A DNA stretch of 59,460 nucleotides from a bacterium. Its GTDB lineage: Bacteria; Sysuimicrobiota; Sysuimicrobiia; Sysuimicrobiales; Humicultoraceae. Both the position numbers and the translations under genes were made by a program. The DNA is taken from the NCBI GenBank assembly GCA_050695215.1, contig JBOGSD010000013.1, positions 1 through 59,460 on the forward strand, written 5' to 3'. The notes beneath the pieces were generated by a model. It saw only the letters and a program-made list of their open reading frames with translations. It was not told where the DNA came from and ran no database searches. Numbering within the stretch: position 1 is the first letter of the stretch; the number at the start of each line of letters is the position of its first letter. Below are positions 3,858-19,878 of this stretch, piece after piece.

Positions 3858-4505
3858 GAGGCATGGTCACCGAACAGGAGATCCACGCGCTGGACCCGGA
3901 TGACGTCCTGCGGATCGACCACGACGAAGCCCATCTGGGCGACACCCCGCATTCCGCCCATGGGTTGCCCCGCCTTTGGGAGCATGTCGTATTGTCTGGC
4001 CACGGACAGACCGCCATCGAGGAGCACCGGAAAGGTGACCCCTGTGATCTGCAGGAGCCTGCGTGACTCGTCGGGCGTGTCTTCTGTTGATCACGTAGAC
4101 GTCCGCGCTTTGCCTGAGGGATTCTGCCGACCGCTGCAGCTTCACGAGCTGCTCAAGGCAGAGCTGTCAGCCGACTCCCATATGGAAAATGAGAACCGTC
4201 GGCCTGCCCCGGCCGGGGGTGACCATATGCGACTGGCCATCGGCTGTGGAGAGGCTGAAAGAGGGCGCCCGCTGCCCCACCAGGGTTTTCACATCCTGGG
4301 AGACGTCGCGCCCCCCTACCGGGCCAGGCAAGCGCGATTCTGATCCTGGCGGTGACTGATCACGGGACAGCAGCCAGACGCCGGCCACAACAATGACCGC
4401 GATCCCGGCCGCGATCCACCACCGCCGCGCGCCGCTGAAGCCGCGCCGTGACCGTTGCTGCCTCTGCCGGAGGCGGGCTTCCGACCGTCGATTCTTCCGG
4501 CTCAT
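3809..4505 (-). pseudogene. Prx/redoxin-like selenoprotein paralog 1 (in-frame TGA 4167-4169; +1 frameshift near 4081-4085)
   Basis: ORFs 4167..4505, 3867..4145 and 3809..4027 join as ...TVLIFHMGVG-TGA-QLCLEQLVKLQRS...VINR(+1 nt)DTPDESRRLLQITGVTFPVLLDGG... by comparison with paralog 2. Confidence 0.6.
4136..4152 (-). promoter_or_regulatory. SECIS-like hairpin 14 nt downstream of TGA 4167-4169
   Basis: mRNA sense GCAGCU-CGUGA-AGCUGC: 6-bp stem with a GU-containing loop. Confidence 0.35.
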
Positions 4506-5047
4506 GGACTCCTCCGATCGGGCGAGGGCTCTGTCTCCCGCCGGGATTCCTCGTACTGCCAGCGCCGGTGCTCATCAGACCAGAGACTCTTGAAGTAGGT
4601 GATGAGGGCGCGGATGTCGGCCTCAGTCAGTTTGTCCTTGAACGGCGGCATCGTCAGATCCGGGGTCTTGTTGAACGGATCACGCCATCCGTTGCTGATG
4701 ATTGCAGCCAGCTCCCGATCGCTGTGCCGCCACGTGTGCCCTGCGTCATCGTGGGGCGGGGGTGGCAGGTTTCCCCGGGCGTCGGGCCGCGTCCAGTTCG
4801 GTGCCCCCTCGGCCCGCGGCCCGTGGCAGCTCGCGCAGTAGCGGACATACAACTCGCGGCCGCGTGCGACCTCGGGCGGTTCGAGAGGAGGCAGGCCGGG
4901 TCCTGCCGTGTCGGCTGCGGGGCGGGCGCAGCCGGCCAGGAAGAGCGCGCAGGCGGCTGCGAAAGCCAGACGCGGCCGCCAGGCTTGCGCGGCAATGCTC
5001 CCCCCGAAAGACGACCCGCGCACATGCGCTACCGCACAGGACGCCAT
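4502..5047 (-). CDS. Monoheme c-type cytochrome, probable lipoprotein, paralog 1
   Basis: CASCH heme motif. LFLAGC lipobox-like sequence. Its stop overlaps the next start (ATGA). Confidence 0.8.
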   Translation of the reverse strand: MASCAVAHVRGSSFGGSIAAQAWRPRLAFAAACALFLAGCARPAADTAGPGLPPLEPPEVARGRELYVRYCASCHGPRAEGAPNWTRPDARGNLPPPPHDDAGHTWRHSDRELAAIISNGWRDPFNKTPDLTMPPFKDKLTEADIRALITYFKSLWSDEHRRWQYEESRRETEPSPDRRSP

Positions 5048-5148
5048 GTGCTCCCGCCGTCGGCGCTGTGAAACAGCCCGCCATCGGCCACCGCGGCTTG
5101 CACCTGGCGCTCGACTTCGTCTACCCGACCGTCCCCCACCAGGCCTGC

Positions 5149-5409
5149 TCTCCCGAGGCCGTCGCCTGCGTGCTGCGCGACTGGGAGGCCCTCCTCGCCT
5201 TCTACGTCGTCCCCGAATGCGACTGGCGGCGCGTCCGCACCACCAACGCCATCGAGCGTGCCTTCCGCGAGGTGCGGCGGCGCACCCGACCGATGACCTG
5301 CTTCACCAACCCAGCGAGCTGTGACCGCATCATCTATGCGGTCATGCACTACCTGAACAGCCAGTGGCAGGGACCTCTCTGGCGGCCCGAAATTACACAG
5401 AACTCTTGA
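5149..5409 (+). mobile_element. IS256-family (mutator-type) transposase C-terminal remnant
   Basis: The tail of ORF 4702..5409 reads WEALLAFYVVPECDWRRVRTTNAIERAFREVRRRTRPMTCFTNPASCDRIIYAV. This resembles the conserved TTNAIE...RRRT C-terminus, but the N-terminal catalytic part is missing. Confidence 0.65.
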
Positions 5410-5536
5410 CGCTACCGGAGCCGCCGCACGCCCAAGGGCAGGGGCGGGCCGACGGTGCGCCGAAGGGACTCTTCCTCTAAATACCCCAACCATTGTGGTG
5501 AGCGCGGTGCGCTAGTGCCCGGTCTGCGCGGACGAC

Positions 5537-6280
5537 ATGATTCCGGAGTTCGGGTCTACGTGTGAGGACCCGATTGCCTGGTCCTGCCGCGCCTGCGGCT
5601 TCATCCAACTGGAGACGGGCGGCCGTTCGCTCAGCAGCGAGCAGATGACCGCGGTGCGGGAACTGACCGCGGCGTATGCGCCACGGCCCGCCCGCGGGGT
5701 TGCAGTAGGAGACACGCGCGGCCCGGGCGCGCGAGGCGCCGCACCCGAAGCGATCCGAGCGGCCCGCGACATCCTGGCGGCCTTCTCCCTGACCCCTCCC
5801 GTAGACGTCGAAGCGGCCGCCCGGCTGCTGGGCTATCCGGTGGAGTGGGTCTCCCGCCCCCGCCGGGAGCGCGGCGGCATCGCCCGGAGGAATCGCGAGG
5901 TAACCCTCCTGGTCAATCGGGAGTACGCCTTCCGCTCCGAAGCGGAGCGACGGTGGGTGCTGGCGGAGGAACTTGGCCACGCGGTGCTCGGGCACCTCGC
6001 GCTCGTCGCGAGCGATGCGCCCGGGGATCCGTCCCCGCTGCGGGAACCGGACCGCCGACGCGCCGAAGACGCCGCGCGCGCGTTCGCGGCCGAGCTGCTG
6101 ATGCCCGCCGCCGAGGTGCGCACCCGCTTCATCAGCCTCCAGCAGGGCACCGACCGTCCTGCCGGCGCGTGGGAGCGGGACAAGACGGTGCGCCGGATGG
6201 TCGCCGATCTGGCCGGGGACTTCGAGGTCTCTCAGGCCGCCATGCGCATCCGGCTGGAAGAGTTAGGGCTACTGCACTGA
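5537..6280 (+). CDS. ImmA/IrrE (DUF955)-like metallopeptidase-family protein
   Basis: RWVLAEELGHAVLGH...ERRAEDAARAFAAELLMP resembles the ImmA/IrrE core. The first His of HEXXH is replaced by Glu (EELGH). Confidence 0.55.
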   Translation: MIPEFGSTCEDPIAWSCRACGFIQLETGGRSLSSEQMTAVRELTAAYAPRPARGVAVGDTRGPGARGAAPEAIRAARDILAAFSLTPPVDVEAAARLLGYPVEWVSRPRRERGGIARRNREVTLLVNREYAFRSEAERRWVLAEELGHAVLGHLALVASDAPGDPSPLREPDRRRAEDAARAFAAELLMPAAEVRTRFISLQQGTDRPAGAWERDKTVRRMVADLAGDFEVSQAAMRIRLEELGLLH

Positions 6281-6311
6281 GCGGGCAGGGGCTAAGGTCG
6301 GCGCGACTGCC

Positions 6312-8081
6312 TCAGGTTGCGCTACGGTGAACCTTCCCATTACGCACACCTCCGTCCTGTTGCCTTCTCCCCCCATCGCTCACAGCGTAGGCGTTGTGTA
6401 TGTACTGTTCGAGCATGCGTTGGGCGTTGAAGAAGGAACCGTTTAGGGCAATTGCCGACCGCATGACCCGCCCATACTCCTCCGGTCGATCGTAGAACAT
6501 GGGAACGATCACATGCTCGAGCTTGTCGAGAAGAGAGGCCACCTCGCTGGAGGGATCGCCTTCCGATTGCGGGCCGTCCCCGATTGACCATCCGGTCACT
6601 CCCTCGATATGCCCCTCGATCCACCAGCCGTCCAGGATGCTCAGGCTGGGGACTCCGTTGAGCGCGGCTTTCATGCCGCTGGTGCCTGAGGCCTCCTGCG
6701 GTTTTTGCGGGGTATTCAGCCAGAGATCGACGCCGGCGCATAACTGACGGGCCAGCGCCAGGTCGTACTCCTCCAGGTAGACTACAGCCAAAGTCTCCCG
6801 CAGCTCGTTGGCGGCCTGGAAAATCCTCCGGATAATGGCCTTCCCACCCTCATCCCGGGGATGTGCCTTCCCTGCAAAGATGACCTGAAGCGGCCCCGCG
6901 CGCCAGACAATCCGCCGCAGCCGGTTAATGTCAGAGAGGAAGAGATCCGCCCGTTTGTATGCGGTGGCGCGACGGGCGAACCCGATGGTCAGCACCTCCG
7001 GGTCGAGGCGTAGGCGCGTCCGCTCCTCCACGGCTTCGAACAACTCCGCTTTGGCCTGCGCATGGGCCTGCTTTATCTCATCCCTGGGAATGCCGGTCGC
7101 ATAGCGCAGGTAGAGGTTGTCCCGGCGCCATTCCGGAAGGTGACGGTCGAAGATCCGCTGGAACGGCGGCGCCGTCCAGGTGGCGGCGTGCACGCCGTTC
7201 GTGATGGAGCTGATCGGATAGCCCGGAAACATCGTTCGCGAGATTTCCCCGTGCCGCATGGCCACACCGTTGATGTACCGCGAGAAGTACAGGGCCAGAT
7301 AGGTCATATTCAGGACACCCTGCGGAAAACACCCATGTGCCTCCAAGAACCCGATCCGGTCCTCGCCGAGCACCTCACGGGCCAGAGCGAGTGGAAATTG
7401 ATCGTGACCGGCCGGCATCGGAGTGTGCGTGGTGAAGACGCATTGACCCCGGACGGCCTCTTTGTCCGCTTCGGTGGCGATAAGAAGCCCTCGCTCCCCG
7501 ATCCGCTCCTCCAGCAGTGCCAGAGCGAGCAGGGCAGCATGACCTTCGTTCATGTGGTAGGAGTCCACGCCCAGCGGCGGGTCGCCCAGGGCACGCAGGA
7601 GTGCCACGCCGCCAAACCCCAAGATGGCCTCCTGCCGGAGACGATAGCGCTCGTCGCCCCCGTAGAGGTGGTCCGTCAGACCCCGATCCTCGGGCACGTT
7701 CTCTGACAGGTCGGTGTCAAGGAAGTAGACGGTCACGTCTCCAGAGAGGCCGCGGAGACGGCAACGCCACGCGCCGACCTGCACGGAGCGCCCTTCAATC
7801 TGCACCGAGACGCGGGCCGCCACGGGGTCCAGGAACTCCTCCGGCGACCATACCACCGGGCTCTCGGACTGGTTCCCATGTTCATCGAGACGCTGGCGGA
7901 AATACCCTTGCCGGTGCAACAACGTGATTCCCACCATGGGGCACCCGAGATCGGCCGCGGCCCGCAGCGTATCGGCGGCCAGCACACCCAGGCCGCCAGC
8001 GTACGTGGGCATGGCAGCGAGGAGGCCAACCTCCATTGAGAAGTAGGCGACCGTTGGATGGTGCTGCGGCGTCCCAGGCAC
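6312..8081 (-). CDS. glgP: Alpha-glucan (glycogen) phosphorylase, GT35 short type
   Basis: 589 aa: [10 protein letters not shown]...[18 protein letters not shown]...[16 protein letters not shown] (PLP-Lys region). Confidence 0.85.
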
Positions 8082-8109
8082 GGGGCGGTTCTCTCCTGCG
8101 AAAACCGCG

Positions 8110-9822
8110 TCAGACGATGAAGGGGTCCCAGCCGCCGTAACGGTTCCGGATGGGACCGCGCGGAATGCTCAGCACGATCAGGAGGGCGCCGGCGACGAGG
8201 GCGTTCACGCGGGCGGCGAGAGAGGCGCCTGGCAGGACCCAGAGCGCGACGGGAATCGCCAGGGCCAGCAAGATGTTGAGGAATCTGGTCACGCGCCCCA
8301 CCTCGGCGAAGGCGATGAAGACGACGGTGACGATCAGCGCCCCGAGGATGCTCTCTGCGTCCGCGGCGGCGCCGGTCGTCCCGAAGACCGCCCGTGAGGC
8401 GAAGAGCCAGGCACCCAGGGCCGCGCCGGCCAGCAGCGGCCACGGGACGTTGGCCCCCCAGAACATCTCCGCCCAAGGGTTCCGGCGTCGTCGTTCCACC
8501 CCGATCTCCTCCACCGGGCGAGGGAGGCTCCCGCCGATCCAGAACAGCCGCCAGGCGGACAGTCCCGCACGCCGCCCGATAACCAGGAACTGCACCATCG
8601 CGACAATCTCGTCGAGCGACAGCGTCACCATGATCAGCATCAAGAGCGCCGACGTCAGGCAGAGCGTGCACCAGGCCCCCACGGCCACCGGCTGGAGCAT
8701 GATCAGGATGACGCTGGTGATCCCCAGCGGGATCACGGCGAAGCCGAACATGGCCACCATCCACGGCATCGTCCGCCACCGCCGCGAGTCGCCCATCAGC
8801 CCCGAGAGGATCTCGATCAGGTAGGTGTAGGCGCCGAGCCCGGCATCGGAGATCGGGAAGGCGCGCGACACGTCGGAGGTCAGGACCAGCTCGGTCCCCT
8901 TACCGAAGATCGGGTCCCAGGCCGTCGGGATGTGCCCTAGCTGAAAGGCCGCCATGTAGCGCGACATGAAGAAGCTGAGAAAGGCCAGTGCGATGATCGG
9001 GCCGCGCTGCGGCCAGGTGGAGGGGCTGTAGGTCCAGCCCGGCGGGATGTCGGGCCCCGGCATCTCTGTGCGCATGGGGATGATCACGGCGAAGGCGATG
9101 ACCAGCATGCCGACCAGGGTGTCGTTGGCGTAGGCCACCGCGTCGGGCGACCAAAAGGCCAGGGGCGCGAACATCAGCCACAGCCCAACGACCGCGTTCG
9201 CCCAGGGCGCCCAGGGGCGGCGTCCCACGCTCAGCGCGCCGAAGGAGATGACCAGTAGCCCACTGATGATGTCGCTCCAGACCAGTGCGCCGGCACGGTA
9301 GCCGAAAGCCAAGGGACTGGCGACGAGCCAGGCGCCCAGCGGCAAGACCGCGATTTGGGCCCAGCGTTCCATCAACAGGTGCCGGGCCATCAGCACGCCC
9401 ATGTCGAGTTCCTTCGCCTTCGCGTCCGCTTGCGCGCTGGACGCCGGCTCGATCTCCTGGAGGAGGGCCGCCTCGTGCGCCAGCAGCGCCTCAGGCAGCT
9501 CGCGCACCAGCGCCTGCCGTTCCTGCATGGACTTCATCATTTCGATGTGCCCACGGGGATCGGTGTCCATGAAGCCCTGGGCCTCGGCATCGTGGCGGCG
9601 TTGCTCCGCGAACTCGCGCCGGCGCTCCCGTTCCAGGAGCGCCTGAAGCGCGCGCATCTCCTGAAGGTGTTCTAGCTTCGGCTGCACAGAGCCGGTGGGC
9701 GCTTCATGGGCCATCTCGTGCCCGGCGTCGCCGCCGGCCTCCGAGGACGGCTGCGGCGCCGCGCCGTGGGCGCCATGGTGGTCTGAAGAAACCCTATGGG
9801 AGTCTTTGTGATCTCCCTTCAT
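8110..9822 (-). CDS. Polytopic membrane protein: His-rich N-terminus, SPW-repeat-like segments, VKOR-like domain with a TM CxxC
   Basis: 570 aa: N-terminal HKDSHRVSSDHHGAHG; LVASPLAFGY / LMFAPLAFWSP segments; AWCTLCLTSALL in a TM helix. Confidence 0.45.
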   Translation of the reverse strand: MKGDHKDSHRVSSDHHGAHGAAPQPSSEAGGDAGHEMAHEAPTGSVQPKLEHLQEMRALQALLERERRREFAEQRRHDAEAQGFMDTDPRGHIEMMKSMQERQALVRELPEALLAHEAALLQEIEPASSAQADAKAKELDMGVLMARHLLMERWAQIAVLPLGAWLVASPLAFGYRAGALVWSDIISGLLVISFGALSVGRRPWAPWANAVVGLWLMFAPLAFWSPDAVAYANDTLVGMLVIAFAVIIPMRTEMPGPDIPPGWTYSPSTWPQRGPIIALAFLSFFMSRYMAAFQLGHIPTAWDPIFGKGTELVLTSDVSRAFPISDAGLGAYTYLIEILSGLMGDSRRWRTMPWMVAMFGFAVIPLGITSVILIMLQPVAVGAWCTLCLTSALLMLIMVTLSLDEIVAMVQFLVIGRRAGLSAWRLFWIGGSLPRPVEEIGVERRRRNPWAEMFWGANVPWPLLAGAALGAWLFASRAVFGTTGAAADAESILGALIVTVVFIAFAEVGRVTRFLNILLALAIPVALWVLPGASLAARVNALVAGALLIVLSIPRGPIRNRYGGWDPFIV

Positions 9823-10994
9823 GGCCTCATCATCGTCTCATCATGGACGGGCATGCCGCCGCGCAGCATGTCGTTCACCTCATCCAACCGGCGGGCGTCC
9901 AGCTCCACATCCGGAGGCGCCGGCTCGACCTCCGCCAGCCACGCCGGCGTCTCCAGTCCGTTCTCCCGGTACCAGGCCCAGGGGTCGGCCTTCAGCGCGG
10001 CGACGATCATCGGCAGTGTCTCGCGCAGGCGCCGCTTCGGCGCCCATGAAAGAAGCGCCCGGGCCCGCGCAATATCCAGTTCGAAGTGGTCGTCTGCCAG
10101 CTCAATCATCCAGGGCTTGATGAACGGCTTCCGCCCCAGCGGAAGCGTATCCTGAAGCCACGCGCCCAGTTTCGCCGGAGACTTGGGGATCTGCCGGGTT
10201 TTCCACTCCTCGCCGTGGATGAGACCTCCCAGGAGGACCTGCATCTCTCCGTACCCCACCGTCTCGGGCTCGCCGGCCAGGAGAACCAGCTCGGACGGCA
10301 GGTCCCCACGGCGTTCCACGAGCCGGACGTAGAGGTCGACCACATCCTGCAGATGGATCAGCGCTTGTCCGTGGGAGAGATTCCCCGGGAAGGCGTAGGC
10401 GGTGAGGTCCCGCTCGAAGATTCGCTGAATCTGGCGGGGCAGCGGCGCGGTGTGACCCAGGTCATCGTACACTCCGGCGAGTCGCAGGATCACCGCGGGA
10501 ATGTCGCCACGCTCCGTCCGGATCACCTGCTCCGTGCGCACCTTCGACTCCGGGTAGGGCCAAGCCGGGCGCAGCGGCCAGTCTTCAGTGATCGGGCGCC
10601 CCGGGCTGGTGGGCGCGTGCACCAGCATCGTGCTGGCGAAGATGAACTGCTCCACGCGGAACATCTCGCGCAGTAGACGGAGCAGCCGCTGCGTGCCACG
10701 GACGGTGACCTTGTCGTAGAGCGGGCTGGGGGCGCCGGAGAAATCGTAGTACGCCGCCAGGTGGACGACCGAGGCGAGACGGTCGCCGTGGATGTCGCGG
10801 ACCGCCTGTAGGGCCCGCCGCAGGCTGGGTTCAGAGGTCAGATCCGTATACAGACACTCCGCCGTGGGCGGCGGATGGGACGGGGCCCGCCGGTCGAATC
10901 CCACGACGGAGAACGTCTCGCTGAACCGCTTGGCTACCGCGTAGCCGAGGTAGCCGCTGCTCCCCGTGACGAGAATCGTTCCGGCTTCTTTCAT
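9819..10994 (-). CDS. NAD(P)-dependent epimerase/dehydratase (extended SDR)
   Basis: ILVTGSSGYLGYAV Rossmann motif. 391 aa. Confidence 0.8.
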   Translation of the reverse strand: MKEAGTILVTGSSGYLGYAVAKRFSETFSVVGFDRRAPSHPPPTAECLYTDLTSEPSLRRALQAVRDIHGDRLASVVHLAAYYDFSGAPSPLYDKVTVRGTQRLLRLLREMFRVEQFIFASTMLVHAPTSPGRPITEDWPLRPAWPYPESKVRTEQVIRTERGDIPAVILRLAGVYDDLGHTAPLPRQIQRIFERDLTAYAFPGNLSHGQALIHLQDVVDLYVRLVERRGDLPSELVLLAGEPETVGYGEMQVLLGGLIHGEEWKTRQIPKSPAKLGAWLQDTLPLGRKPFIKPWMIELADDHFELDIARARALLSWAPKRRLRETLPMIVAALKADPWAWYRENGLETPAWLAEVEPAPPDVELDARRLDEVNDMLRGGMPVHDETMMRP

Positions 10995-11013
10995 CGCTTT
11001 CGCAGCCAGCGCA

Positions 11014-11030
11014 CACTACGACAAGAAGTG
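11014..11030. promoter_or_regulatory. Operator site 7: CACTAC-GACAA-GAAGTG
   Basis: Lies in the divergent intergenic region, 20 bp from the epimerase start (10994) and upstream of 11143. A TATATT -10-like hexamer is at 11036-11041. Confidence 0.5.
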
Positions 11031-11142
11031 TGTCATATATTTCCCCGGAGGCGAGGGGGACTCCCGCCCGCCGGCGCTGCATCTTCTGTTGAGGTGGAGG
11101 ACTGAGAATCGTACCCTGAACATTGGTGGAAGGGATGGCGAA

Positions 11143-12108
11143 GTGCTCAGGAAGCTGACGCTCATTGGGCTGTTAATCTTTCTGACCAGTCCGGCTCGGG
11201 CCGAGCCGATTGTGACGATCCGTGGCCATGTCCTCAACGGCACATTTGACCGGCGGCCGCTTCCCGGACGGTTCGTTCAAGTCGTCCGGATGAGCAGGGA
11301 AGGCGTCGTGATCGCGTCAGTCCGGACAAACGCCAACGGGGAATTCACCGCGAGGATACCCGAAAGCGACGGCACCTACGTCGTGGTCGCTCGCCATGGC
11401 GAGGTGGAGTACGCCAGTGAGCCGTTCCGGCTGAAACCCGGTCCCCCGGCGCGGATCAACGTCGTCGTGTACGAACCCACAACCCTCCGGCCGCCGCTCG
11501 TCTTTCCCTTTCGCATTGTCTTGATCGATCGTTTCGGGGCCGGCGTCATTTCCGTGCGAGAGGTCGTGGCCATTGCAAACCCATGGCCTCGCACATACAT
11601 CGGTCAACGTTCGCCGCAAGAGGGGTTCACGTTGACCCTGGCGTTGCCCCAAGGCGCCGAAGCGGTCGAAGTGCTGCGCGGTCTCGGGTCGGCGTCCCTC
11701 GAGAAAGGACGCCTCATCGACCGAGCCCCCTTGCAGCCCGGAGAGCACGAGATCGCGTATGCATACCAAGTCCGTTATTGGGGCACGAAAGCGCGGTTGA
11801 GGTGGGCGTTGGACGAGGACACCGGAAGCATGGATGTCTTCGCGCCCGACCAGGGTGAACGGCTCGCCAGCAATGTCCTAGAGGCCAAGCCTTCCGGCAT
11901 GGTCAAAGGGCAGCGATTCCTTCGCCTGGCCCGAGACGAGCTGCGCAGTGGTGAGGTCGTCGAAGTGATAGTGACGGGATTGCCGGGGAACTACTCGCCG
12001 GTCGTGCCCTTCCTGGCGATCGTGCTGGCGGTGGTCCTTTCAAGCAGCACGCTCATGGCGATCCGGAAGGCCAAGAAGGACCAGATCAGCTCGATGGCGT
12101 CCGACTGA
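11143..12108 (+). CDS. Membrane-anchored exported protein with carboxypeptidase-regulatory-like domain, paralog 2
   Basis: ORF 10966..12108. GTG 11143 gives signal peptide VLRKLTLIGLLIFLTSPARA. IRGHVLNGTF...NANGEFT. C-terminal TM helix. Confidence 0.6.
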   Translation: MLRKLTLIGLLIFLTSPARAEPIVTIRGHVLNGTFDRRPLPGRFVQVVRMSREGVVIASVRTNANGEFTARIPESDGTYVVVARHGEVEYASEPFRLKPGPPARINVVVYEPTTLRPPLVFPFRIVLIDRFGAGVISVREVVAIANPWPRTYIGQRSPQEGFTLTLALPQGAEAVEVLRGLGSASLEKGRLIDRAPLQPGEHEIAYAYQVRYWGTKARLRWALDEDTGSMDVFAPDQGERLASNVLEAKPSGMVKGQRFLRLARDELRSGEVVEVIVTGLPGNYSPVVPFLAIVLAVVLSSSTLMAIRKAKKDQISSMASD

Positions 12109-12784
12109 GCATCCTGACGATTTGCAAGAGCTGAGCGGCATGCTGGCCGAACAAGATATCGACCCGCTGGACACGGATCGCGCCCTGAGGGTCCACCACG
12201 ACAAAACCCATTTGGGCAACTCCCCTCATGCCCCCCATGGGTTGCCCCCGTTTCGGCAGCATATCGTAGCGCTCCGCCACCGCGAGATCACCGTCTAACA
12301 GTACCGGAAACGAGATCCCGGTGATCCGGAGGAGTCTGCGGGATTCCTCCGGCGTGTCCCTGTTCACCACATAAACGTCTGCGCGCTCACTGAGGACTTC
12401 CCTTTCCCTTGACCGCTGCAGCTCCACGAGCTGCTCGAGACAGAGCTGTCAGCCGACCCCCATGTGGAAAATGATCACGGTGGGGCGGCCCTTCCCCCGA
12501 GGGACGGTATGTTTCTCACCGTCGGCGGTGGAAAGTGCGAATGAGGGTGCCTGCCTCCCGACCAGGGTATTGACCTCCTGCGAGACCTCCCGTCCGCCGG
12601 CCGGACCCGGCAACCGTGTGTCCGTCGATTGCTGCTCGCCGCGCGATGCCAGCCAGATGCCTGCGACGAGGAGAGCGAGCACGATCGCCCCGCCCGCCCA
12701 CCAGGCGATCGAGGTCCTGGACCTGCGGCGTCCGCGCCGATGCTGCGGGGGCGAGCGCTTCACCCTGGCCTTTTGCGGGGTCAT
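12086..12784 (-). CDS. Membrane-anchored Prx/redoxin-like selenoprotein candidate (UxxC; Sec codon 12449-12451)
   Basis: ORFs 12449..12841 and 12086..12427 share one frame. Joined, they read VIIFHMGVG-U-QLCLEQLVELQRS...FPVLLDGDLAVAERYD. The TGA aligns to the first Cys of CQPC in paralog 26160..26780. ATG 12784 overlaps the cytochrome stop (ATGA). Confidence 0.7.
12418..12434 (-). promoter_or_regulatory. SECIS-like hairpin 14 nt downstream of TGA 12449-12451
   Basis: mRNA sense GCAGCUC-GUG-GAGCUGC: 7-bp stem with a GU-containing apical loop. Confidence 0.4.
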
Positions 12785-13284
12785 GGCTGTTTCTCCCCCG
12801 GGGAGCCGGTCTGCTCGCGCCTGCTCTCTCCCAGTTGCCATCGGCGGTGCTCTTGCGACCAGAGGCTCTTGAAGTAGGCGATCACGGCGCCGATCTCTTC
12901 ATCGCTAAGTTTGTCTTTGAAGGGCGGCATCGTAAGCTCCGGCGTCTTGTTGAACGGATCCCGCCAGCCATTCCGGATGATTTGGGACAACTCCTTGTCG
13001 CCGTGCCGCCACGTATGCCCGGTGTCATCGTGCGGCGGCGGCGGGAGATTGCCGCGAGCGTCCGGTTTGGTCCAGTCCGTGGCCCCTTCCGCGCGCGGTC
13101 CGTGACAGCTCGCGCAGGACTTCAGATATACCGCTCGCCCCTCAGCGACCTCCGCAGGATCGAGCGGAGGAAGTCTTCCCGATGTCGTCTCTGGACCGAG
13201 ACGCGTACAGGAGGTCAGGGCGAGGATCACCAGTATTAGCAAGAACAGCGAACCGAAGCCGAGCCCGTGTGGTCCGATTCTCAC
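12781..13284 (-). CDS. Monoheme c-type cytochrome lipoprotein, paralog 2
   Basis: LALTSC lipobox and CASCH heme motif. GTG start at 13284. Confidence 0.8.
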   Translation of the reverse strand: MRIGPHGLGFGSLFLLILVILALTSCTRLGPETTSGRLPPLDPAEVAEGRAVYLKSCASCHGPRAEGATDWTKPDARGNLPPPPHDDTGHTWRHGDKELSQIIRNGWRDPFNKTPELTMPPFKDKLSDEEIGAVIAYFKSLWSQEHRRWQLGESRREQTGSPGEKQP

Positions 13285-13307
13285 AGAACCCGCTGCGCCA
13301 AGGTTCT

Positions 13308-14216
13308 CTACTGCGTCACCTTCCGCCAGCTTATGCCGCCGCCCCGACTCGCCAGGAGCGTTCCGTCGGCGGCAATGGCGAAGAGGCGCTGCGGAAGGCG
13401 GGGGTGTTGTGCGAGCGCCGCCAGGCTTCCCGCCCCTGAGGGAAGAGTCACTGGGCGCCAGGTCCGTCCTGCGTCCGGGGAACGAAAGAGCCCGGCAGGG
13501 CCTGCGGCAAAGACCAGGCGCGGGTTGCGGAGATCGACAAGTACGGCGGCAGCCTCACTGGGGGTGGGCCACCGGCCCACCTGGCGCCACCCTCAGAAAC
13601 AATCCATGCTGATGTAGGGGCCCTCTTTGGTCCCGGCATAGAGCCAGCCGGTATTCATGCTGCCCTCGAGGGGCGAGTGCGCGAGCGCCAGGACCGGCTG
13701 TGCGGCGGGGCCGCCATCCATGCGCTGCCATCGCTGGCCGCTATCCTCCGTCCGGTACATCCCCTTTCCGCGCAGGGAGACAAAAAGGGTTGCGCGCCGG
13801 GAGGCGTGGATGGCCAAGGCCTCGACGTCCGTGGAGGAGAGCCCGGTGTTGATCTGCTGCCACGTGGCGCCGCTGTCCCGGCTCATGAGGACCCCTGCAC
13901 CGGGGCCGGCCGCGTATATTACGTCAGGCTTCTCTGGATTGACCACGACCTGGCTGACGCCGGTGGACGCAAAGCGGGCGGGAAGGGGAAGCGGCACCCA
14001 GCGACGCCCGCCGTCTTTACTGCGGAACAGCTGGGCCGAGGCGGCCTTGAGCAGATCGCCATTGCGCGGATCGACTGCAAGGCCGATTTGCGGGCGCCCC
14101 GGCGAAACAGACACGGGCGCCGCCACCCCGGAGGAACTCGATTCGCGCCTGTAGACGACGACAGCCCCCAGCAAGAGGAAGACCGCCAGGGACGCGATCA
14201 GGATGCGTGCCCTCAA
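13308..14216 (-). CDS. TM-anchored six-bladed BNR/Asp-box beta-propeller (Ycf48/sialidase-like) with in-frame TGA 13593-13595
   Basis: ORFs 13593..14369 and 13308..13580 share one frame. Asp-boxes: SKDGGRRW, SRDSGATW, TEDSGQRW, SMDCF-TGA-GW, SPDAGRTW, SRGGGISW. Start tentatively TTG 14216, overlapping the Rieske stop. Confidence 0.5.
13563..13581 (-). promoter_or_regulatory. SECIS-like hairpin 11 nt downstream of TGA 13593-13595
   Basis: mRNA sense GGUGGGCC-GGU-GGCCCACC: perfect 8-bp stem. Confidence 0.4.
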
Positions 14217-14884
14217 GCGATGCCCCCCGACTCGACGTCGGTGACCACGATCTGCTCGCCGCGGATCTCGTACAGGAACGTCCGCGGCGGGCGCGGCGCA
14301 GGGCCGGAAAGAACGCGGCCCGGCTGCTCGGGGTCTGCTGGATCGAAGATGGAGAGGTGGCAGGGGCACGCCATCAGGGCGTGCTGGCGCTCCTTGGGCG
14401 GCCTGTAGCCGCCATAGCCAGCCGTAACCTCTGCGTGGTTCGAGACATAGTTATAGATGCACCCCAAGTGGGGGCAGATGCGGGAGAAGACAATGAGATT
14501 GCTCTCTCGTCCAACAAACTCGGGTTTGTTAATGGCGCGGGCCCAGTCCCAAGGGAGCCTGACTTTCCCGGGCAGGCGGACCACCACTGCAGGCACGTTC
14601 GCCGAGCGCAGCCCTTCCGGCGTGTACTGCGGGTACTTCTGAGTGAATACGAAATACTTGAAGTCCCACGACCTCTGGACCTCGGACAGCGCCGCGGCGA
14701 CGGTCGTCTCCCCTCGAGGGATGTCGCGCACGGTAGGACGATACAGCACCTCAAATGGCTTCATGTTGGGTTTGAGCATCCTCAGGAGAGGCGATAAGAA
14801 GGCAGCGGCGGCGGCGACAAGCGGCAGGGACGTGACGAGTTTCAGGAAGCCGCGACGATCCAGGCCCTTTAGCTCCGTGGCCAT
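14213..14884 (-). CDS. Rieske [2Fe-2S] protein with Tat signal
   Basis: DRRGFLK twin-arginine signal. CPHLGC ... CPCH cluster motifs. Confidence 0.85.
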   Translation of the reverse strand: MATELKGLDRRGFLKLVTSLPLVAAAAAFLSPLLRMLKPNMKPFEVLYRPTVRDIPRGETTVAAALSEVQRSWDFKYFVFTQKYPQYTPEGLRSANVPAVVVRLPGKVRLPWDWARAINKPEFVGRESNLIVFSRICPHLGCIYNYVSNHAEVTAGYGGYRPPKERQHALMACPCHLSIFDPADPEQPGRVLSGPAPRPPRTFLYEIRGEQIVVTDVESGGIA

Positions 14885-14967: not shown

Positions 14968-15873
14968 CTAAACCGGACAAACCGTCAAAATGGGGAAGAC
15001 ATTCAACGCCCAGACGAGCCCGTAGAGCCCGGCCGCCGGTCCCAGGACAACCGCCACTGCCACCCAGCTCTCGAGGAGCGCCCGAGGGGACGCTCCGGGC
15101 AGGTCCACGCCTCGCCCCAGCAGCAGTGAGAGCCGGACATCTGTCACGCTCGTGAAAGCGCTGGCCGGCGTGACAGCGGGCGCCGGGTTGAGGAGCTTGA
15201 GCATGGCAGAGGAGAGGCTGACCGAATCGCCAAGTCGCGCCAGGGCGTACTGGTCGGCGGCAAGCTCCAGGGCGGCCTGCTGTCGCACGGCCAGAGCCTT
15301 CGCAACGGGAAGATAGAAGAACCCGGCGGCCAGCGCCCTGGACACAAGCAGAGCCAGGGGGTCCCTGTGCACAGCATGGCTCGCCTCATGGAGGAGGACG
15401 GCTTCGAGCTCGCCTTCATCGAGGCGCTCGATCAGCCCGGTGGAAATGATGATCTTTGGCGCAAAGAGGCCCGCGGTGAGCGCGTATGGCCGGACGTCGC
15501 CGACGGCGACGACGTGATCCATCAACCCCAGCGTGTGGAGGACAGGGAGGAGCTCTAAGGGCAAGCCCACAGCGTGACGCCTGAGGGACCGGACATACCG
15601 CCACGTCTCCCACCATTTGCTCAGCGCGGCGGCGAGCCAGAAGACGGCGGCGGCCAGACCCGCCAGCATTACAACGACCGCCAAGCCCTGAACCACATCC
15701 GGCAGGACGCGCCACACACGGAGGCACATGTGGCCCAGCGCCGTCAAGGCTCCCCGGAAGGCCTTTGCGCCAAGCACGGCGGCCACGCCAAGGGCAAGAG
15801 AGGCCACGACGGACACGACCACGACGCCCCACAGCGCACGGACTGCCTCTTTACGGTAATCGGCTTGGTCCAC
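14968..15873 (-). CDS. M56-family (BlaR1-like) membrane metalloprotease without extracellular sensor domain
   Basis: 301 aa, multiple TM helices, LLHEASHAVHRDPLALL (HEXXH). Confidence 0.8.
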   Translation of the reverse strand: MDQADYRKEAVRALWGVVVVSVVASLALGVAAVLGAKAFRGALTALGHMCLRVWRVLPDVVQGLAVVVMLAGLAAAVFWLAAALSKWWETWRYVRSLRRHAVGLPLELLPVLHTLGLMDHVVAVGDVRPYALTAGLFAPKIIISTGLIERLDEGELEAVLLHEASHAVHRDPLALLVSRALAAGFFYLPVAKALAVRQQAALELAADQYALARLGDSVSLSSAMLKLLNPAPAVTPASAFTSVTDVRLSLLLGRGVDLPGASPRALLESWVAVAVVLGPAAGLYGLVWALNVFPILTVCPV

Positions 15874-15918
15874 TTGCGCCTGCCTCCTGACCTAGGCCCG
15901 CTGCCGATGGGCCGTCTT

Positions 15919-15935
15919 CGCTACAAAGTCTAGTG
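15919..15935. promoter_or_regulatory. Operator site 2: CGCTAC-AAAGT-CTAGTG, upstream of the M56 gene
   Basis: Minus sense TTGACC-N18-TAGACT, with the operator over the -10. Confidence 0.5.
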
Positions 15936-15952
15936 TTTTCCGGGCGGATGGG

Positions 15953-16201
15953 TCAACGACGCGACTTCTTCGGCCTCCCCCAGGCGGCGGTCAGCACGAT
16001 GGCCGCGCCGGCCAACAGCATGCCCTGGGCCACGACGTTCCAGAGATGCTCGGTCAGGGCGATGCCCGTACCGTGAGCAGCAAGCACCGCGAACCCGCCG
16101 AGGATCGAGGTCCATCCGAGCGCCAGGACCAGCAGATGCCGCATGGCGTGAGGGCGGCGAGGGCTGAGCGCCATGCGAGAGCCTGATTTTGACCGAGGCA
16201 T
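15953..16201 (-). CDS. Small two-TM membrane protein
   Basis: 82-aa ORF with two hydrophobic helices, positioned inside the operon. Confidence 0.4.
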   Translation of the reverse strand: MPRSKSGSRMALSPRRPHAMRHLLVLALGWTSILGGFAVLAAHGTGIALTEHLWNVVAQGMLLAGAAIVLTAAWGRPKKSRR

Positions 16202-16210
16202 AAAGAGCGT

Positions 16211-16639
16211 TCAGATGTTAGGGCGCACGTCGACCGGGAAGGTCAGCCGGCCCGTTGAAGTCCCGCGACGGATGATCACTTCAAGCCAGGCAGGGCCAAC
16301 GTTCAGGAACTTGATTTCGGTCCGATAGACTCCAGGTGCGACGGGACTCGTCCTTGCCAGGTCCGGCCTCTGCCTCTCTGCCCCATACCGGAGGGTCACC
16401 CCGTCAACGGGGACAGAGCGCTGCCGGTTGTCGGTAAGCACTACCTCGACCGGAATTGGGCCGGTCCTTGGCGGGTCGGGGGCCATGCGGATCGTGACTT
16501 GCACCTGCGTGCCGGCCAGATCGACCGCCCCCGACCGGGGAGGGGTTTGGAGGACCGTGTTGAGCAGCGCCAGGCCCGCAAAGAGGATGACGCCGAAGCC
16601 CGCGAGGTAGACGACCTGTTTCCTCCGGCGCCCCTTCAA
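16211..16639 (-). CDS. TM-anchored FixH/YtkA-like domain protein
   Basis: 142 aa. N-terminal anchor, then a beta-rich domain (VQVTIRMAPDPPRTGPIPVEVVLTD...YRTEIKF). Confidence 0.45.
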   Translation of the reverse strand: MKGRRRKQVVYLAGFGVILFAGLALLNTVLQTPPRSGAVDLAGTQVQVTIRMAPDPPRTGPIPVEVVLTDNRQRSVPVDGVTLRYGAERQRPDLARTSPVAPGVYRTEIKFLNVGPAWLEVIIRRGTSTGRLTFPVDVRPNI

Positions 16640-16677
16640 CTCTCGATGCGAAGGGACGATGAGCTTTCTCCTCTAGG

Positions 16678-18630
16678 TTATGCCCGGCCGGGAGCCAGCC
16701 GCCGCCGCCCCGGAAGCACTGCGACAAGGGTGCCCGCGGTGATCACGCCAGCCCCCACCCAGATCCAGAACACGAGGGGATTCAGCAGGATCCGCAGGCG
16801 TGCCTCCCCTTCGATCACACCGCTGAAGATGACATACAGGTCGTCCCGAGGCGTCGATCTGAGACCTATCAAAGTCACGGGCTGCTGGGAGGCCAGGTGC
16901 ATGACTTGGGCCGGGCTGAGCTCGCCTAAGTCGCGGCCGGCGTTCGACACGGAGATCCGGGCAGCCATCCCGGCCCGGGTGCTGTCGCGATAGGGGATCA
17001 CCCCGTTGAGGGTCAGGCGGTACCGCCCGATCTGCACCTGGCCCCCCGGAGCGAGGCCCGTTTCGACCTGACGCGAAAACGCGGAGGAGGCCGTGATCCC
17101 CACGACCATCAACAGCACGCCGACGTGGACGATGTAGCCTCCGTATCGCTGCGGGTTCACGCGAAGCAGGGAGAAAACGCCTCCAGCCATCCCCTCGCCA
17201 AGGCGCCGCCGAGCCGCGAGTCCGCGGCCGAACTCACTGAGCGTGATGGCGACAACGAAGACCGATAGTACGAAACCGCTCAGGGCCGCAGGCTTGCGGA
17301 TGCCGAAGACGATCAGGACCACGCCTGCGGCCGCGGCCAGCATCCCCGCCGCGTAGAGCCTCCGGCCGAGGCGGGCGGGGGACTCCTGCACCCATGGGAT
17401 ATGCGTGCCGATGCCCATCAGCAGGAGCGTCAACAGGGCAATGGGCACGAAGACCTGGTTGAAGTACGGCGGCCCGATGAAGATCTTGATGCCCTTGACG
17501 GCCTCGTAGAGCATAGGGAAGGTCGTGCCCAGGAATACGGTCGCAGCGGCGGCGGTGAGCACGACGTTGTTGAACAGGAACGAGGCCTCCCTGGAAAGGA
17601 GGGACTCCAGGTAGTTGTGCTCGCGCAGCCGGTCCATGCGCGCCAACAGCAGGCCAAGAGTCGCCGTCATGGCGACGGCGAGGAAGATCACGAAAACCGG
17701 GCCGATCGAGGACCGGGCAAAAGAGTGGACGGAGGACACCACCCCGCTGCGCGTCAAGAATGTTCCGAAGATCGAGAGGCCGAACGCCACGATGATCAGC
17801 CCAAGGTTCCAGACGCTCAGCATGCCGCGGCGCTCCTGCACCATCACCGAATGCAGGTAGGCGGTCATCACGAGCCAGGGCATAAACGCGGAGTTCTCAA
17901 CAGGGTCCCACCCCCAGTATCCGCCCCACCCCAGGACGTGATAGGCCCACCACCCCCCGATCGTCAGGCCCATGCCCAGGAAGTACCAGCTCATGATGGC
18001 CCACCGGCGCATGCTTCTGAGCCACTCCTCGCCCAGCTCCCCCGTGATGAGCGCGGCCACGGCGAAGGCGAAGGGGACGGTGATCCCCACGTAGCCCAGG
18101 TACAGCGTGGGGGGATGGATGAACATCCCCGGATCCTCGAGGAGCGGGTTCAGGTACCGCCCGTCCGCCGGGGGAAAGGGGAGTCTGTCAAACGGGTTCG
18201 ACACGCTTGAGAGAAGAAGGAGAAAGAAGGCCAGCACGCCCATGAGGACCGCGATCACGTAGGGCATCAGGCGCTTGTGCCGGTCACGATTGATCAGCAC
18301 GACCGCCGCGCCATAGAGGCTGAGGATCCAGGCCCACAGGAGGAGTGAGCCGTCCATACTCCCCCAGAAACCGGAGATCCGGTACGCCAGAGGGGTGGAG
18401 AGGTTGGTGTTCTCGGCGACATAGCTGACCGAGAAGTCGCGCCCGATGAAGCTCCCCACCAGGATCGCCGACGCCACCGTCAGAAGGAACGCGATCGCAA
18501 TCACTCCCCGCCGGGCTCCGATGAGGAGGGGCTCGTGGGCGCGCCGGGCCCCGGCCACCGCGGCCGTGATCGCGTACGCGCTCGTGACGAGGCTGGCGAG
18601 GACCGCGAAGTATCCGAGATCCGCCATCAT
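16678..18630 (-). CDS. ccmF: Cytochrome c-type biogenesis heme lyase CcmF/NrfE family
   Basis: 650 aa, polytopic. W-rich motif WGGYWGWDPVENSAFMPWL. Confidence 0.85.
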   Translation of the reverse strand: MMADLGYFAVLASLVTSAYAITAAVAGARRAHEPLLIGARRGVIAIAFLLTVASAILVGSFIGRDFSVSYVAENTNLSTPLAYRISGFWGSMDGSLLLWAWILSLYGAAVVLINRDRHKRLMPYVIAVLMGVLAFFLLLLSSVSNPFDRLPFPPADGRYLNPLLEDPGMFIHPPTLYLGYVGITVPFAFAVAALITGELGEEWLRSMRRWAIMSWYFLGMGLTIGGWWAYHVLGWGGYWGWDPVENSAFMPWLVMTAYLHSVMVQERRGMLSVWNLGLIIVAFGLSIFGTFLTRSGVVSSVHSFARSSIGPVFVIFLAVAMTATLGLLLARMDRLREHNYLESLLSREASFLFNNVVLTAAAATVFLGTTFPMLYEAVKGIKIFIGPPYFNQVFVPIALLTLLLMGIGTHIPWVQESPARLGRRLYAAGMLAAAAGVVLIVFGIRKPAALSGFVLSVFVVAITLSEFGRGLAARRRLGEGMAGGVFSLLRVNPQRYGGYIVHVGVLLMVVGITASSAFSRQVETGLAPGGQVQIGRYRLTLNGVIPYRDSTRAGMAARISVSNAGRDLGELSPAQVMHLASQQPVTLIGLRSTPRDDLYVIFSGVIEGEARLRILLNPLVFWIWVGAGVITAGTLVAVLPGRRRLAPGRA

Positions 18631-19052
18631 GGTCGGAATGCGTCGGCTGGGCCGCTCGGAGCCGTGCGCGTCCAGCGGCGGAGGGTGGAGATGGCGATGG
18701 CCGCCGCCAGGACAAGGACGGCGAACGGCCCGATCCAGACGATGAGGCTCAACCCTCGTTTGGGCGGCGCCGCCAGGATGGACTCACCGTACCGGCTCAC
18801 GAAATAGGTGATGATTTCTTCTGGGCTCTTGCCCTGCTTGAGTTTGTCCCTGATAAGAGCCCGCATCTGCTCGGCCAGTTCTGCGTTCGATTCCGCGACG
18901 GTTTGGCCTTCGCAGACCGGGCACATCAGCCGACCGGAGATCTCCCAGACGCGCTCATCCAGCGTCTGGGCACCAGAGCGTTCAGCAGAGAGCAGCCAGG
19001 CGAGAGCGGTCACCAAGACCACAAGCGACAGCACGCGTTGGAGACTCCTCAT
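18627..19052 (-). CDS. ccmH: Cytochrome c-type biogenesis protein CcmH
   Basis: LMCPVCEGQTVAESNAELA...SPEEIITYFVSRYGESIL followed by a TM helix. Confidence 0.8.
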   Translation of the reverse strand: MRSLQRVLSLVVLVTALAWLLSAERSGAQTLDERVWEISGRLMCPVCEGQTVAESNAELAEQMRALIRDKLKQGKSPEEIITYFVSRYGESILAAPPKRGLSLIVWIGPFAVLVLAAAIAISTLRRWTRTAPSGPADAFRP

Positions 19053-19579
19053 CGGGACGCGCTGCCGGACAAGAGCGGCTCCACGTTGCTGATGATGAGC
19101 TCCCGCGTGACAGGCCCCAAGTGCTTCAGGGCAATCCGTCCCGAGCGGTCGATGAAGAAGGTCTCGGGGATCCCGGTCACTCCGTAATCCTGCAGGATCT
19201 TCCCGCTGAGGTCAGGTCCGTTGGGATAGGTTTTGCCGAACTCCCGAATCATGGCCAGCGCGTCCTGTTGCCGGTCCCAGATATTCACCCCGACCAACAC
19301 CAGCCCGCGGGGGCGATAGGTCACCCACGTCCATTGCAGGACAGGTGACTCCTGCTTGCAGGCGGTGCACCAGGATGCCCAAAAGTTGATGAGAACAACT
19401 CTGCCGCGAAGGTCCGCCAGACGGAGGCGGTCGCCTTCGAACAGGTCGAGCGTGAAGTCGGGCGCCGGCGCGCCGACCAGCGGCGTGCTCCACGGCGGCT
19501 TCTCGCGGGCCACGCCCAGCGCCAGAACCGCCAGAACGGCGGCCAGGGCCCCCAGGACGGCCGCCCTTTGCCAGCGCAT
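19049..19579 (-). CDS. Thiol:disulfide oxidoreductase, DsbE/CcmG/ResA-like
   Basis: INFWASWCTACKQESP thioredoxin motif with an N-terminal anchor. Confidence 0.8.
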   Translation of the reverse strand: MRWQRAAVLGALAAVLAVLALGVAREKPPWSTPLVGAPAPDFTLDLFEGDRLRLADLRGRVVLINFWASWCTACKQESPVLQWTWVTYRPRGLVLVGVNIWDRQQDALAMIREFGKTYPNGPDLSGKILQDYGVTGIPETFFIDRSGRIALKHLGPVTRELIISNVEPLLSGSASR

Positions 19580-19596
19580 GCGCTGCGCGCCTAAGT

Positions 19597-19878
19597 TTAA
19601 TTCCTCCCGACGGACTCGACGGGCGCCGGTTCCTCGGACGAGTGGTGCTCACTGATAGTCCTTGCGGCCTCCTTCTTGCCGTCGGTCGACTCCATACCGT
19701 GGTGGCTCATACTCCCGGTTCCGTGCTGCATGCCCCCCATGCCCCGCATCATCATCACGGGGCAAGCCAGCAGGGCGGCAACGATCAGCAGGGTCCCCAG
19801 TGGAACGCCTAGAGCCAAACCCAAACCTCCTGCGCCGAGTACTCCGGCCACCCACAGCCACCTGCGATCGACCTTCAT
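19597..19878 (-). CDS. DUF2933-like small membrane protein with Met/His-rich tail
   Basis: LLACPVMMMRGMGGMQHGTGSMSHHGMES. Confidence 0.45.
   Translation of the reverse strand: MKVDRRWLWVAGVLGAGGLGLALGVPLGTLLIVAALLACPVMMMRGMGGMQHGTGSMSHHGMESTDGKKEAARTISEHHSSEEPAPVESVGRN

Follow-up and report, generated by a model that had tools for sequence, protein, structure and literature searches.

ResA, TlpA and CcmG are extracytoplasmic, membrane-anchored thiol-disulfide oxidoreductases of cytochrome c maturation, and Scs (suppressor of copper sensitivity) and Sco/TlpA are thioredoxin-fold proteins of periplasmic copper tolerance or delivery. Selenoproteins with related domains are catalogued as Prx-like thiol:disulfide oxidoreductases (PF00578, UxxC or UxxU, representative WP_010940744.1), as 'Redoxin family protein' (PF08534, UxxC, representative HEU0032618.1) and as 'Thiol-disulfide isomerase-like' (cd02966, UxxC) (PMC13188914), and the Prx-like group has been reported in Geobacter, Syntrophus and Desulfotalea species (PMC1794560). 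The model of the bacterial selenocysteine insertion sequence (bSECIS) has a stem of 4–16 bp, a loop of 3–9 nt that starts with G and then G or U, a distance of 16–37 nt from UGA to loop and a minimum free energy of -7.5 kcal/mol or lower (PMC13188914). Here we describe a redoxin gene, designated copy B, on a 59,460-nt stretch of bacterial contig JBOGSD010000013.1 (assembly GCA_050695215.1; the whole stretch is called the window below), in which an in-frame TGA very probably encodes selenocysteine (Sec). Compared by description with the Prx-like selenoproteins, the window redoxin likewise has an AhpC/TSA domain, Sec as the first residue of UxxC, a downstream SECIS-like element in the coding region and Cys-form homologs, and with its PF00578 domain and Sec in UxxC it falls within the definition of that family; with the PF08534 and cd02966 selenoproteins, again by description only, it shares UxxC in a redoxin/TlpA-like domain. 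It differs from the Prx-like selenoproteins in that its family was found in Chloroflexota, Armatimonadota and Sysuimicrobiota-like metagenome-assembled genomes (MAGs) and not in Deltaproteobacteria, in a predicted N-terminal membrane anchor, in the signature (F/S)HMGxx-U-xLC with an invariant Met-rich QPMGxMxGVAQMGF loop, and in belonging to a conserved three-gene module, BNR(U)-cytochrome c-redoxin(U). We conclude that the redoxin represents a new subfamily, so far mis-annotated, within a known kind of selenoprotein (UxxC thioredoxin-fold, 'Prx-like thiol:disulfide oxidoreductase'). More novel is the conserved partnership of the redoxin with a further selenoprotein family, which is apparently uncatalogued.

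Copy B (coordinates of all features in Table 1) starts with ATG at 12784..12782 and ends with TGA at 12088..12086. The minus strand reads MTPQK...TVIIFHMGVG-TGA-QLCLEQLVELQRS...SRTPSS-TGA, with the internal TGA at 12451..12449 and no other in-frame TGA before the final stop. The peptide across the site would be HMGVG-U-QLCLEQLVELQR, and the codon for the second Cys of U-Q-L-C is at 12442..12440. A preliminary description of this DNA, made from the sequence alone, had stated that the open reading frames (ORFs) 12449..12841 and 12086..12427 lie in the same frame with only the TGA and seven codons between them, which agrees with the ORF list, and that thioredoxin-fold homology continues past the TGA. 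The latter claim is borne out by Pfam AhpC-TSA, which matches read-through residues 75–205 over profile positions 1–123 of 124 (E 9.5e-18) and thereby spans the TGA; Pfam Redoxin also matches (E 3e-9). The distance from the APxF motif to the TGA is 29 residues, the same as from APxF to the Cys of the Cys-type paralogous redoxin encoded on the opposite strand of the window, and BLASTP places the first Cys of the CQPC motif in this paralog opposite the TGA (35% identity, E 7e-12), just as the preliminary description had aligned them. In Bacillus subtilis ResA, the best match in the Protein Data Bank (PDB) by sequence (E 9e-6), it is Cys74, the first Cys of CEPC, that aligns to the TGA. All factual statements of the preliminary description proved correct.

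Genome collections were scanned with one genome per species (185,579 species, at most the 80 best loci), with assembly GCA_975103605.1 not among the hits, and a profile search of a protein database covered 1.84 billion cluster representatives. Searching with the protein returned a single 'full-length' homolog (P0001) and several C-terminal fragments (P0002-P0006) that start just past the TGA column. P0001 carries Trp at this column in its JGI annotation; the underlying DNA (L001:399) has TGA, and the Trp is therefore an artefact of the translation table. Two long contigs (L002 and L003) contain the same split redoxin gene with the same neighbours. The scan of species-representative genomes, which relied on peptide patterns away from the Sec site and was therefore unbiased toward TGA, yielded nine loci, all nine with TGA at the redoxin column, and in total the TGA is in frame in 24 of 24 distinct copies from Chloroflexota, Armatimonadota and other MAGs. 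In the profile search, about 45 clusters of N-terminal fragments stop exactly at ...(F/S/T)HMGxx and about 20 C-terminal fragments begin right after the TGA column. The search also turned up full-length relatives that have Cys in this position: P0129 (...STPCDAC...) aligns over its whole length with 38% identity (E 8e-44), and P0137, P0143, P0150 and P0178 read FYMGYFCGxC. The tabulation of Sec, Cys or stop at this column that the preliminary description had proposed thus gives TGA in every one of the 24 copies and Cys in ResA, P0129, P0137 and the window paralog.

In a codon alignment of 13 redoxin copies, the mean over all pairs of the nonsynonymous and synonymous differences per site (pN/pS) is 0.28/0.65 for the part before the TGA and 0.23/0.64 for the part after it, and homologs do not end at the TGA with unconserved sequence behind it, which answers the question of downstream conservation that had been raised for this gene. 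The region past the TGA is constrained at least as much as the region before it and is very probably translated. These values also bear on the idea that copy B is a decaying pseudogene in which a nonsense mutation fell by chance on the codon of the active-site Cys. Decay does occur at this locus, as the frameshifted copy A in the same window shows (see below), but purifying selection is strong on both sides of the TGA, copy B has no other disruptions, dozens of diverged lineages share this TGA, and a one-off mutation cannot account for a family-wide TGA together with a covarying hairpin; we regard a pseudogene as extremely unlikely.

The hairpin that the preliminary description had drawn, starting 14 nt past the UGA, is present in the minimum-energy fold. 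With its loop of the form G[G/U]N, a 7-bp stem and a UGA-to-loop spacing of 21 nt it fits the bSECIS model, and the 39-nt segment that holds it folds at -14.7 kcal/mol, a value for the segment and not for the hairpin alone. Invariant third positions are found in only 5 of the 170 assessable codon columns of the 13 copies, and these five are the codons of the stem arms (+5, +6, +7, +9 and +10; Fisher p ~9e-10), whereas the loop codon and the flanking codons vary freely. In the first 13 sequences the stem is invariant and shows no covariation. With 24 sequences, 98.8% of the hairpin cells pair and two compensatory pairs appear, the changes being G-C to C-G (twice) and G-C to A-U (in four cases, one G-U intermediate being seen); the covariation score is not reached in any of 500 shuffles, and pairing falls to 15–58% when the partner is shifted by 1–3 columns. 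The hairpin is therefore both conserved and covarying among homologs, as it should be if the preliminary description was right, and selection acts on it at the RNA level. The hairpin by itself proves nothing; the comparative evidence goes far beyond what chance would give.

Public annotation treats the TGA as a stop. The source record splits copy B into genes of 111 and 113 amino acids, a 133-amino-acid piece of a homolog is labelled 'redoxin domain-containing protein' by NCBI, and every public annotation splits the gene, save the JGI Trp translation of P0001. Together with the fragments P0002-P0006 and a GTG within the hairpin loop of the window, this would fit a true stop, with an anchored N-terminal fragment and a C-terminal fragment restarted at the nearby GTG. 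Such a split would, however, sever the thioredoxin fold inside the active site, and in the Cys-form relatives both parts belong to one polypeptide. Start codons downstream of the TGA are not conserved, and gene callers choose different starts in different homologs; the frame is kept across the TGA in every copy, and synonymous sites are frozen only where the hairpin requires it. Termination at this codon is thus very unlikely. Because gene callers split the gene everywhere, a whole extracytoplasmic redox family is mis-annotated, one that occurs in Chloroflexota-like bacteria of soil, groundwater and hot springs.

The redoxin gene led directly to a second candidate selenoprotein in the same operon. 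When the window and the DNA of the homologous loci were scanned for in-frame TGAs flanked by coding-like sequence, many spurious hits were obtained, as the DNA is GC-rich, and two signals were recurrent, one being the redoxin and the other a BNR/Ycf48-like beta-propeller gene two genes upstream of it. The BNR gene probably starts with TTG 14216, in overlap with the stop codon of a Rieske gene, and read-through adds 90 codons in frame past the TGA with further BNR-type repeats; in public annotation this later part is uncalled. Among 23 species-representative loci, 20 have the TGA, two have a U-F-U form and one has Cys (TGC, L012/L111). The TGA was also located at L002:8846, L004:5200, L005:5169, L006:5005, L007:2915 and L009:4976. 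The U-F-U form (GAC TGA TTC TGA) is found at L003:4925..4933, on the same contig as L112, and at L118:3228..3236; in this putative Sec-x-Sec pair the UGAs are 6 nt apart and one hairpin serves both. About 69 protein-database clusters stop at ...MDCF and about 9 at ...SMD, so that some 78 are truncated here, the latter group being consistent with the U-F-U form, and 10 full-length Cys-form proteins read MDCFCGW.

The BNR gene has a hairpin of its own, which begins 11 nt past the UGA with a UGA-to-loop distance of 19 nt and a triloop of the form G-G/U-U across loci, and which RNAalifold predicts independently. In 22 sequences 96% of its cells pair, two compensatory pairs are seen and 0 of 500 shuffles reach the score. 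Two loci have a hairpin of entirely different sequence in the same place, and the Cys-form locus is without one. Like the SECIS elements of Escherichia coli fdhF and fdnG and the bSECIS consensus (Zhang and Gladyshev, via PMC13188914), the hairpins of both operon genes form a stem-loop directly 3' of the UGA inside the ORF, with G and then G/U first in the loop and a UGA-to-loop distance of 19–21 nt within the 16–37 nt of the consensus. They differ from those of fdhF and fdnG in being compact, with a perfect stem of 7–8 bp, a 3-nt loop and no bulged U, and both genes are alike in this. Being near-invariant as well, this compact SECIS with its G-G/U-N triloop offers a clean natural example for SelB recognition outside model organisms. 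The BNR family is absent from the selenoprotein table of a May 2026 review, its read-through product matches no NCBIfam selenoprotein model, the only matches being F510_1955 (88 bits against a cutoff of 175) and Ycf48, and a literature search found no description of a BNR selenoprotein, a prior account in Haft and Tolstoy 2025 being possible. Judged from these comparisons, the BNR propeller seems to be a second selenoprotein family in the operon and is apparently uncatalogued.

Taken together, conservation among homologs, conservation of the hairpin and Cys at the TGA column all came out in favor of the original interpretation, and we put the probability that TGA 12451..12449 is a Sec codon in a UxxC redoxin at roughly 0.87. 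As in established bacterial Sec biology, the hairpin would act as a bacterial SECIS during translation and would recruit SelB with Sec-tRNA(Sec), so that Sec is inserted and termination does not take place. TGA is a genuine stop elsewhere, as the preliminary description had held: it ends 41 of 68 roughly predicted genes of the window and is the commonest true stop there, so the genetic code is not reassigned. It is also the stop of the cytochrome c gene that immediately precedes the redoxin, in 10 of 10 examinable loci, mostly in an ATGA, GTGA or TTGA overlap with the redoxin start; the ATGA coupling that had been pointed out in the window lies at 12784..12781, and such coupling recurs in most loci. 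An assembly artefact is not at issue, because independent Logan assemblies from two sequencing runs match the window at 100% identity over the TGAs of both the redoxin and the BNR gene.

Several points weigh against this interpretation or its functional extension. The genes selA, selB and selD and tRNA-Sec were not found in the window or the homologous loci, the rest of the genome not having been searched: ARAGORN, run on the window and 37 loci, reports no tRNA-Sec, a tRNA-Met is the sole Rfam match in the window at the gathering threshold, and tblastn with E. coli SelD and SelA probes gives no match in the window or the loci. Sec machinery in the host genome is thus assumed. The single-sequence folding energy of the redoxin hairpin is no better than that of shuffles for DNA of 67% GC (z = +0.5 and -0.3), and the synonymous-site and covariation tests were therefore preferred over a thermodynamic argument. 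No NCBIfam (release 20) selenoprotein model reaches its cutoff with the redoxin, the best being a SelL-related redox protein at 30.2 bits against 120, and the AlphaFold model of P0001, built from a five-sequence alignment with Trp for Sec, is of low confidence (predicted local distance difference test score 62). The neighbours outside the three-gene core differ between loci, and the proposed substrate, electron donor and copper link considered below are drawn only from gene neighbourhood and residue conservation. On the other side, the redoxin and the BNR gene both have the signature of a Sec gene, so the same lineages carry this signature in two unrelated genes, which is as close as the present data come to showing the Sec machinery.

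The identity of the inserted amino acid is a separate question, since it is not readable from sequence alone. The UGA might be recoded as Cys via a SelB-dependent tRNA, as Trp or Gly under an altered code, or by near-cognate read-through; the JGI pipeline did put Trp at the P0001 codon, and no Sec machinery came to light in the window or the loci. A tRNA of the first kind, inserting Cys at UGA, has reportedly been described by Mukai and colleagues. However, the stops at 41 of 68 window genes and at the adjoining cytochrome c gene rule out code 4 or 25, the Trp of P0001 is contradicted by its own DNA, and insertion of Cys at UGA, which is rare, would itself depend on the same hairpin and on SelB. 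The position of the UGA at a redox Cys and a hairpin matching the SECIS model are a specific signature of Sec, and recoding to another residue is considered unlikely.

Table 1. Features of the window discussed in the text
Feature	Position	Strand	Details
Sec-redoxin gene, copy B	12086..12784	minus	232 codons (231 amino acids + Sec); from translation
In-frame UGA, proposed Sec codon	12449..12451	minus	First position of U-Q-L-C
SECIS-like hairpin of the redoxin gene	12418..12434	minus	7-bp stem GCAGCUC/GAGCUGC, triloop GUG 12427..12425
Predicted single transmembrane anchor (IAWWAGGAIVLALLVAGIWLA)	12647..12709	minus	Read from translation
Mono-haem c-type cytochrome gene	12781..13284	minus	CASCH at ~13116..13102; Pfam Cytochrome_CBB3/Cytochrom_C
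BNR/Ycf48-like beta-propeller gene with in-frame TGA	13308..14216	minus	Pfam Sortilin-Vps10/BNR/PSII_BNR
Second in-frame UGA, C-x-U	13593..13595	minus	...GPYISMDCF-TGA-GWRQVGRWP...
SECIS-like hairpin of the BNR gene	13563..13581	minus	8-bp stem GGUGGGCC/GGCCCACC, triloop GGU
Sec-redoxin paralog, copy A	3809..4505	minus	DNA alignment with copy B
Cys-type paralogous redoxin (CQPC), Cys comparator	26160..26780	plus	Pfam AhpC-TSA E 1.4e-22
Cys-type CcmG-like redoxin	19049..19579		Within Ccm gene set

In the redoxin and its homologs the N-terminus is rich in Arg and leads into a stretch of about 21 hydrophobic residues. Because the Arg-rich segment precedes the anchor, the redoxin domain is predicted to lie outside the cell, and the layout read from the sequence, a positive N-terminus and one hydrophobic helix, agrees with the extracytoplasmic, membrane-anchored protein previously proposed. 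In the P0001 model the Sec position falls between strand 71-77 and helix 84-99 (helix alpha-1), and Foldseek with this model finds ResA as the best match (target-normalised template modelling score 0.80), with peroxiredoxins of the BCP type next; the ResA alignment and this low-confidence model both place UxxC at the N-terminus of helix alpha-1 of the thioredoxin fold. The protein had been labelled Prx/redoxin-like. The Prx part of the label is loose: ResA is the closest solved relative, and the peroxidatic motif PxxxTxxC is absent, the sequence H-M-G-V-G-U-Q-L-C having Sec at the Thr position and Met at the Pro position. NCBIfam cutoffs are not reached either for peroxiredoxins (24.5 bits against 140 and 20.7 against 211) or for ResA (24.4 bits against 170). 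Within the family, the His-Met before Sec, the second Cys and the Met-rich loop are invariant. The product is, as predicted from its sequence, an anchored protein of about 231 amino acids with a cytoplasmic Arg-rich N-terminus and an outward ResA/TlpA-like domain of the AhpC/TSA superfamily.

The redoxin is part of a conserved gene arrangement. The order BNR, cytochrome c (CxxCH), redoxin is found in 9 of 9 loci with enough upstream sequence, and in these nine the redoxin and BNR TGAs are 1.13–1.40 kb apart. In 26 BNR loci, a CxxCH ORF follows about 450 nt downstream wherever the motif was found, and a Sec-redoxin lies within 2.6 kb in 18. In three of these 18 the Sec-redoxin has the form NMGY(S/V)-U-(G/D)AC and precedes the BNR gene rather than following it, and one locus, from an Anaerolineales MAG (L113), has two in tandem, NMGLG-U-MMC and YMGFR-U-QLC. 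Positions of variant Sec-redoxins are L113:4285, L113:5025, L118:1440, L120:197 and L121:2146. The cytochrome c has a lipoprotein-like signal (LALTSC) and its gene is translationally coupled to the redoxin through the ATGA overlap; the public call for the copy B cytochrome c covers only 49 amino acids (12930..12781), whereas a 167-amino-acid ORF that includes CASCH is open. Upstream of BNR, the window operon encodes a Tat-signal Rieske protein, a BlaR1-like M56 peptidase, CcmF, CcmH and the CcmG-like redoxin and, further on, CcdA/DsbD_TM, another redoxin and a BlaI-like repressor. CopC-CopD, a CueR-like MerR regulator with a CopA-type ATPase, VKOR, Lgt and COX2 are encoded nearby. In L002 and L003 a repressor/M56 pair and DsbD_TM follow the redoxin, and L002 also encodes SCO1/SenC.

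We propose, at about even odds, an undescribed extracytoplasmic two-selenoprotein module consisting of an anchored C-x-U (sometimes Sec-x-Sec) BNR propeller, a lipoprotein cytochrome c and, in most cases, a UxxC redoxin, which would form a selenium-dependent redox relay on the outward side of the membrane in Chloroflexota and their neighbours, possibly in copper stress or haem-protein maturation. In the redoxin, the Sec selenolate would replace the attacking N-terminal Cys in thiol-disulfide exchange and would form a selenenylsulfide with the second Cys, which the CcdA/DsbD-type membrane electron transporter encoded nearby may re-reduce. Conserved synteny and the ATGA coupling point to the co-translated lipoprotein cytochrome c, the C-x-U beta-propeller or both as candidate partners or substrates. 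Under copper stress the module might protect or mature haem proteins and thiols outside the cytoplasm, or it might handle Cu(I) directly, which is speculative. Within lineages that have few documented selenoproteins, the redoxin would add Sec use on the outward side of the membrane.

Comparison with the nearest Cys-type systems constrains these roles to some extent. With B. subtilis ResA, and the related TlpA and CcmG, the window redoxin shares the best match in sequence and fold, with the TGA at the nucleophilic Cys of CEPC, the predicted layout of anchor and domain, and CcdA/DsbD_TM, Ccm genes and a cytochrome c encoded nearby. Unlike ResA, it has Sec for Cys and scores only 24 bits against the 170-bit NCBIfam cutoff for that family. 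Since the Ccm set of the window includes its own Cys-type CcmG-like redoxin, the Sec protein is probably not the general apocytochrome reductase. Like Scs and Sco/TlpA, the redoxin would be an extracytoplasmic thioredoxin-fold protein among copper-homeostasis genes, a likeness by gene context alone. A copper link is suggested because His, four Met, Sec and Cys are invariant and CopCD, CueR-CopA, Ccm and VKOR are encoded around the gene; binding of Cu by the His, Met, Sec and Cys residues of the redoxin is a hypothesis only, and the substrate and copper roles are much less certain than the assignment of Sec in UxxC.

The window contains a second copy of the Sec-redoxin gene. The region 3227..4894 is an old 1.7-kb duplicate of 11508..13173 (68% nucleotide identity) that takes in the Sec-redoxin, the greater part of the cytochrome c gene and, from a CarboxypepD_reg-domain gene, the 3' half. 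On the upstream side of its cytochrome c gene, copy A is cut short by a Transposase_mut (IS256-type) fragment at ~5068..5409. The preliminary description had counted the retention of the TGA in this paralog in favor of Sec. The TGA is indeed present at 4169..4167, and a hairpin of 6 bp with the loop CGUGA lies at 4152..4136, but the gene is frameshifted and lends weaker support than had been assumed: an extra base near 4083/4082 causes a +1 frameshift 28 codons past the TGA, and the indel is identical in an independent Logan assembly (SRR27067775). As independent support for the Sec codon, copy A was downgraded because of this frameshift. After repair of the frame, pN is 0.13 and pS 0.64 relative to copy B (omega about 0.1), and copy A was therefore functional for most of its history; it is most likely a recent pseudogene.

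The L2 protein of the window, which has a ribosomal-protein/SecY/Adk/Map operon at 43558..59258 (minus), is closest (77–79% identity) to those of Candidatus Sysuimicrobiota (CSP1-3) MAGs, while the selenoprotein genes are closest to those of an Armatimonadota MAG and of Chloroflexota MAGs. These affinities differ, which suggests mobility of the module, with possible horizontal transfer between phyla. Positions 5317..14635 are identical to the Logan assembly of run SRR27067778. The window corresponds to NCBI record CDGWLH010000041.1 (assembly GCA_975103605.1), relative to which there are single substitutions at 12933, 6776 and 3906, none in a TGA or hairpin, and this looks like strain- or assembly-level variation.

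Genes for extracytoplasmic thiol, haem and copper functions form a dense island at 14968..30168 of the window. It comprises a BlaI-like repressor, a BlaR1-like M56 peptidase, two Cys-type TlpA-like redoxins, CcdA, CcmH, CcmF, the Tat-signal Rieske protein, a CopC-CopD fusion, the CueR-like MerR regulator with its CopA-type ATPase, and a small thioredoxin with a DsbD-like membrane protein and the CQPC redoxin. The Penicillinase_R gene at 21334..21777 might have encoded a metal-sensing repressor of the CopY type, but this was rejected because its product lacks the C-terminal Cys motif. The VKOR gene, at 8110..9822, encodes SPW repeats as well. DUF3179 is listed as a selenoprotein family with UxxC/T (PMC13188914), and the DUF3179 protein encoded at 37310..38476 (minus) has the motif C-P-L-T and looks like a Cys form. 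Finally, two segments of about 330 nt each, 24524..24850 and 39019..39345, are 69% identical, the second lying about 400 nt from the tRNA-Met gene at 39747..39821.

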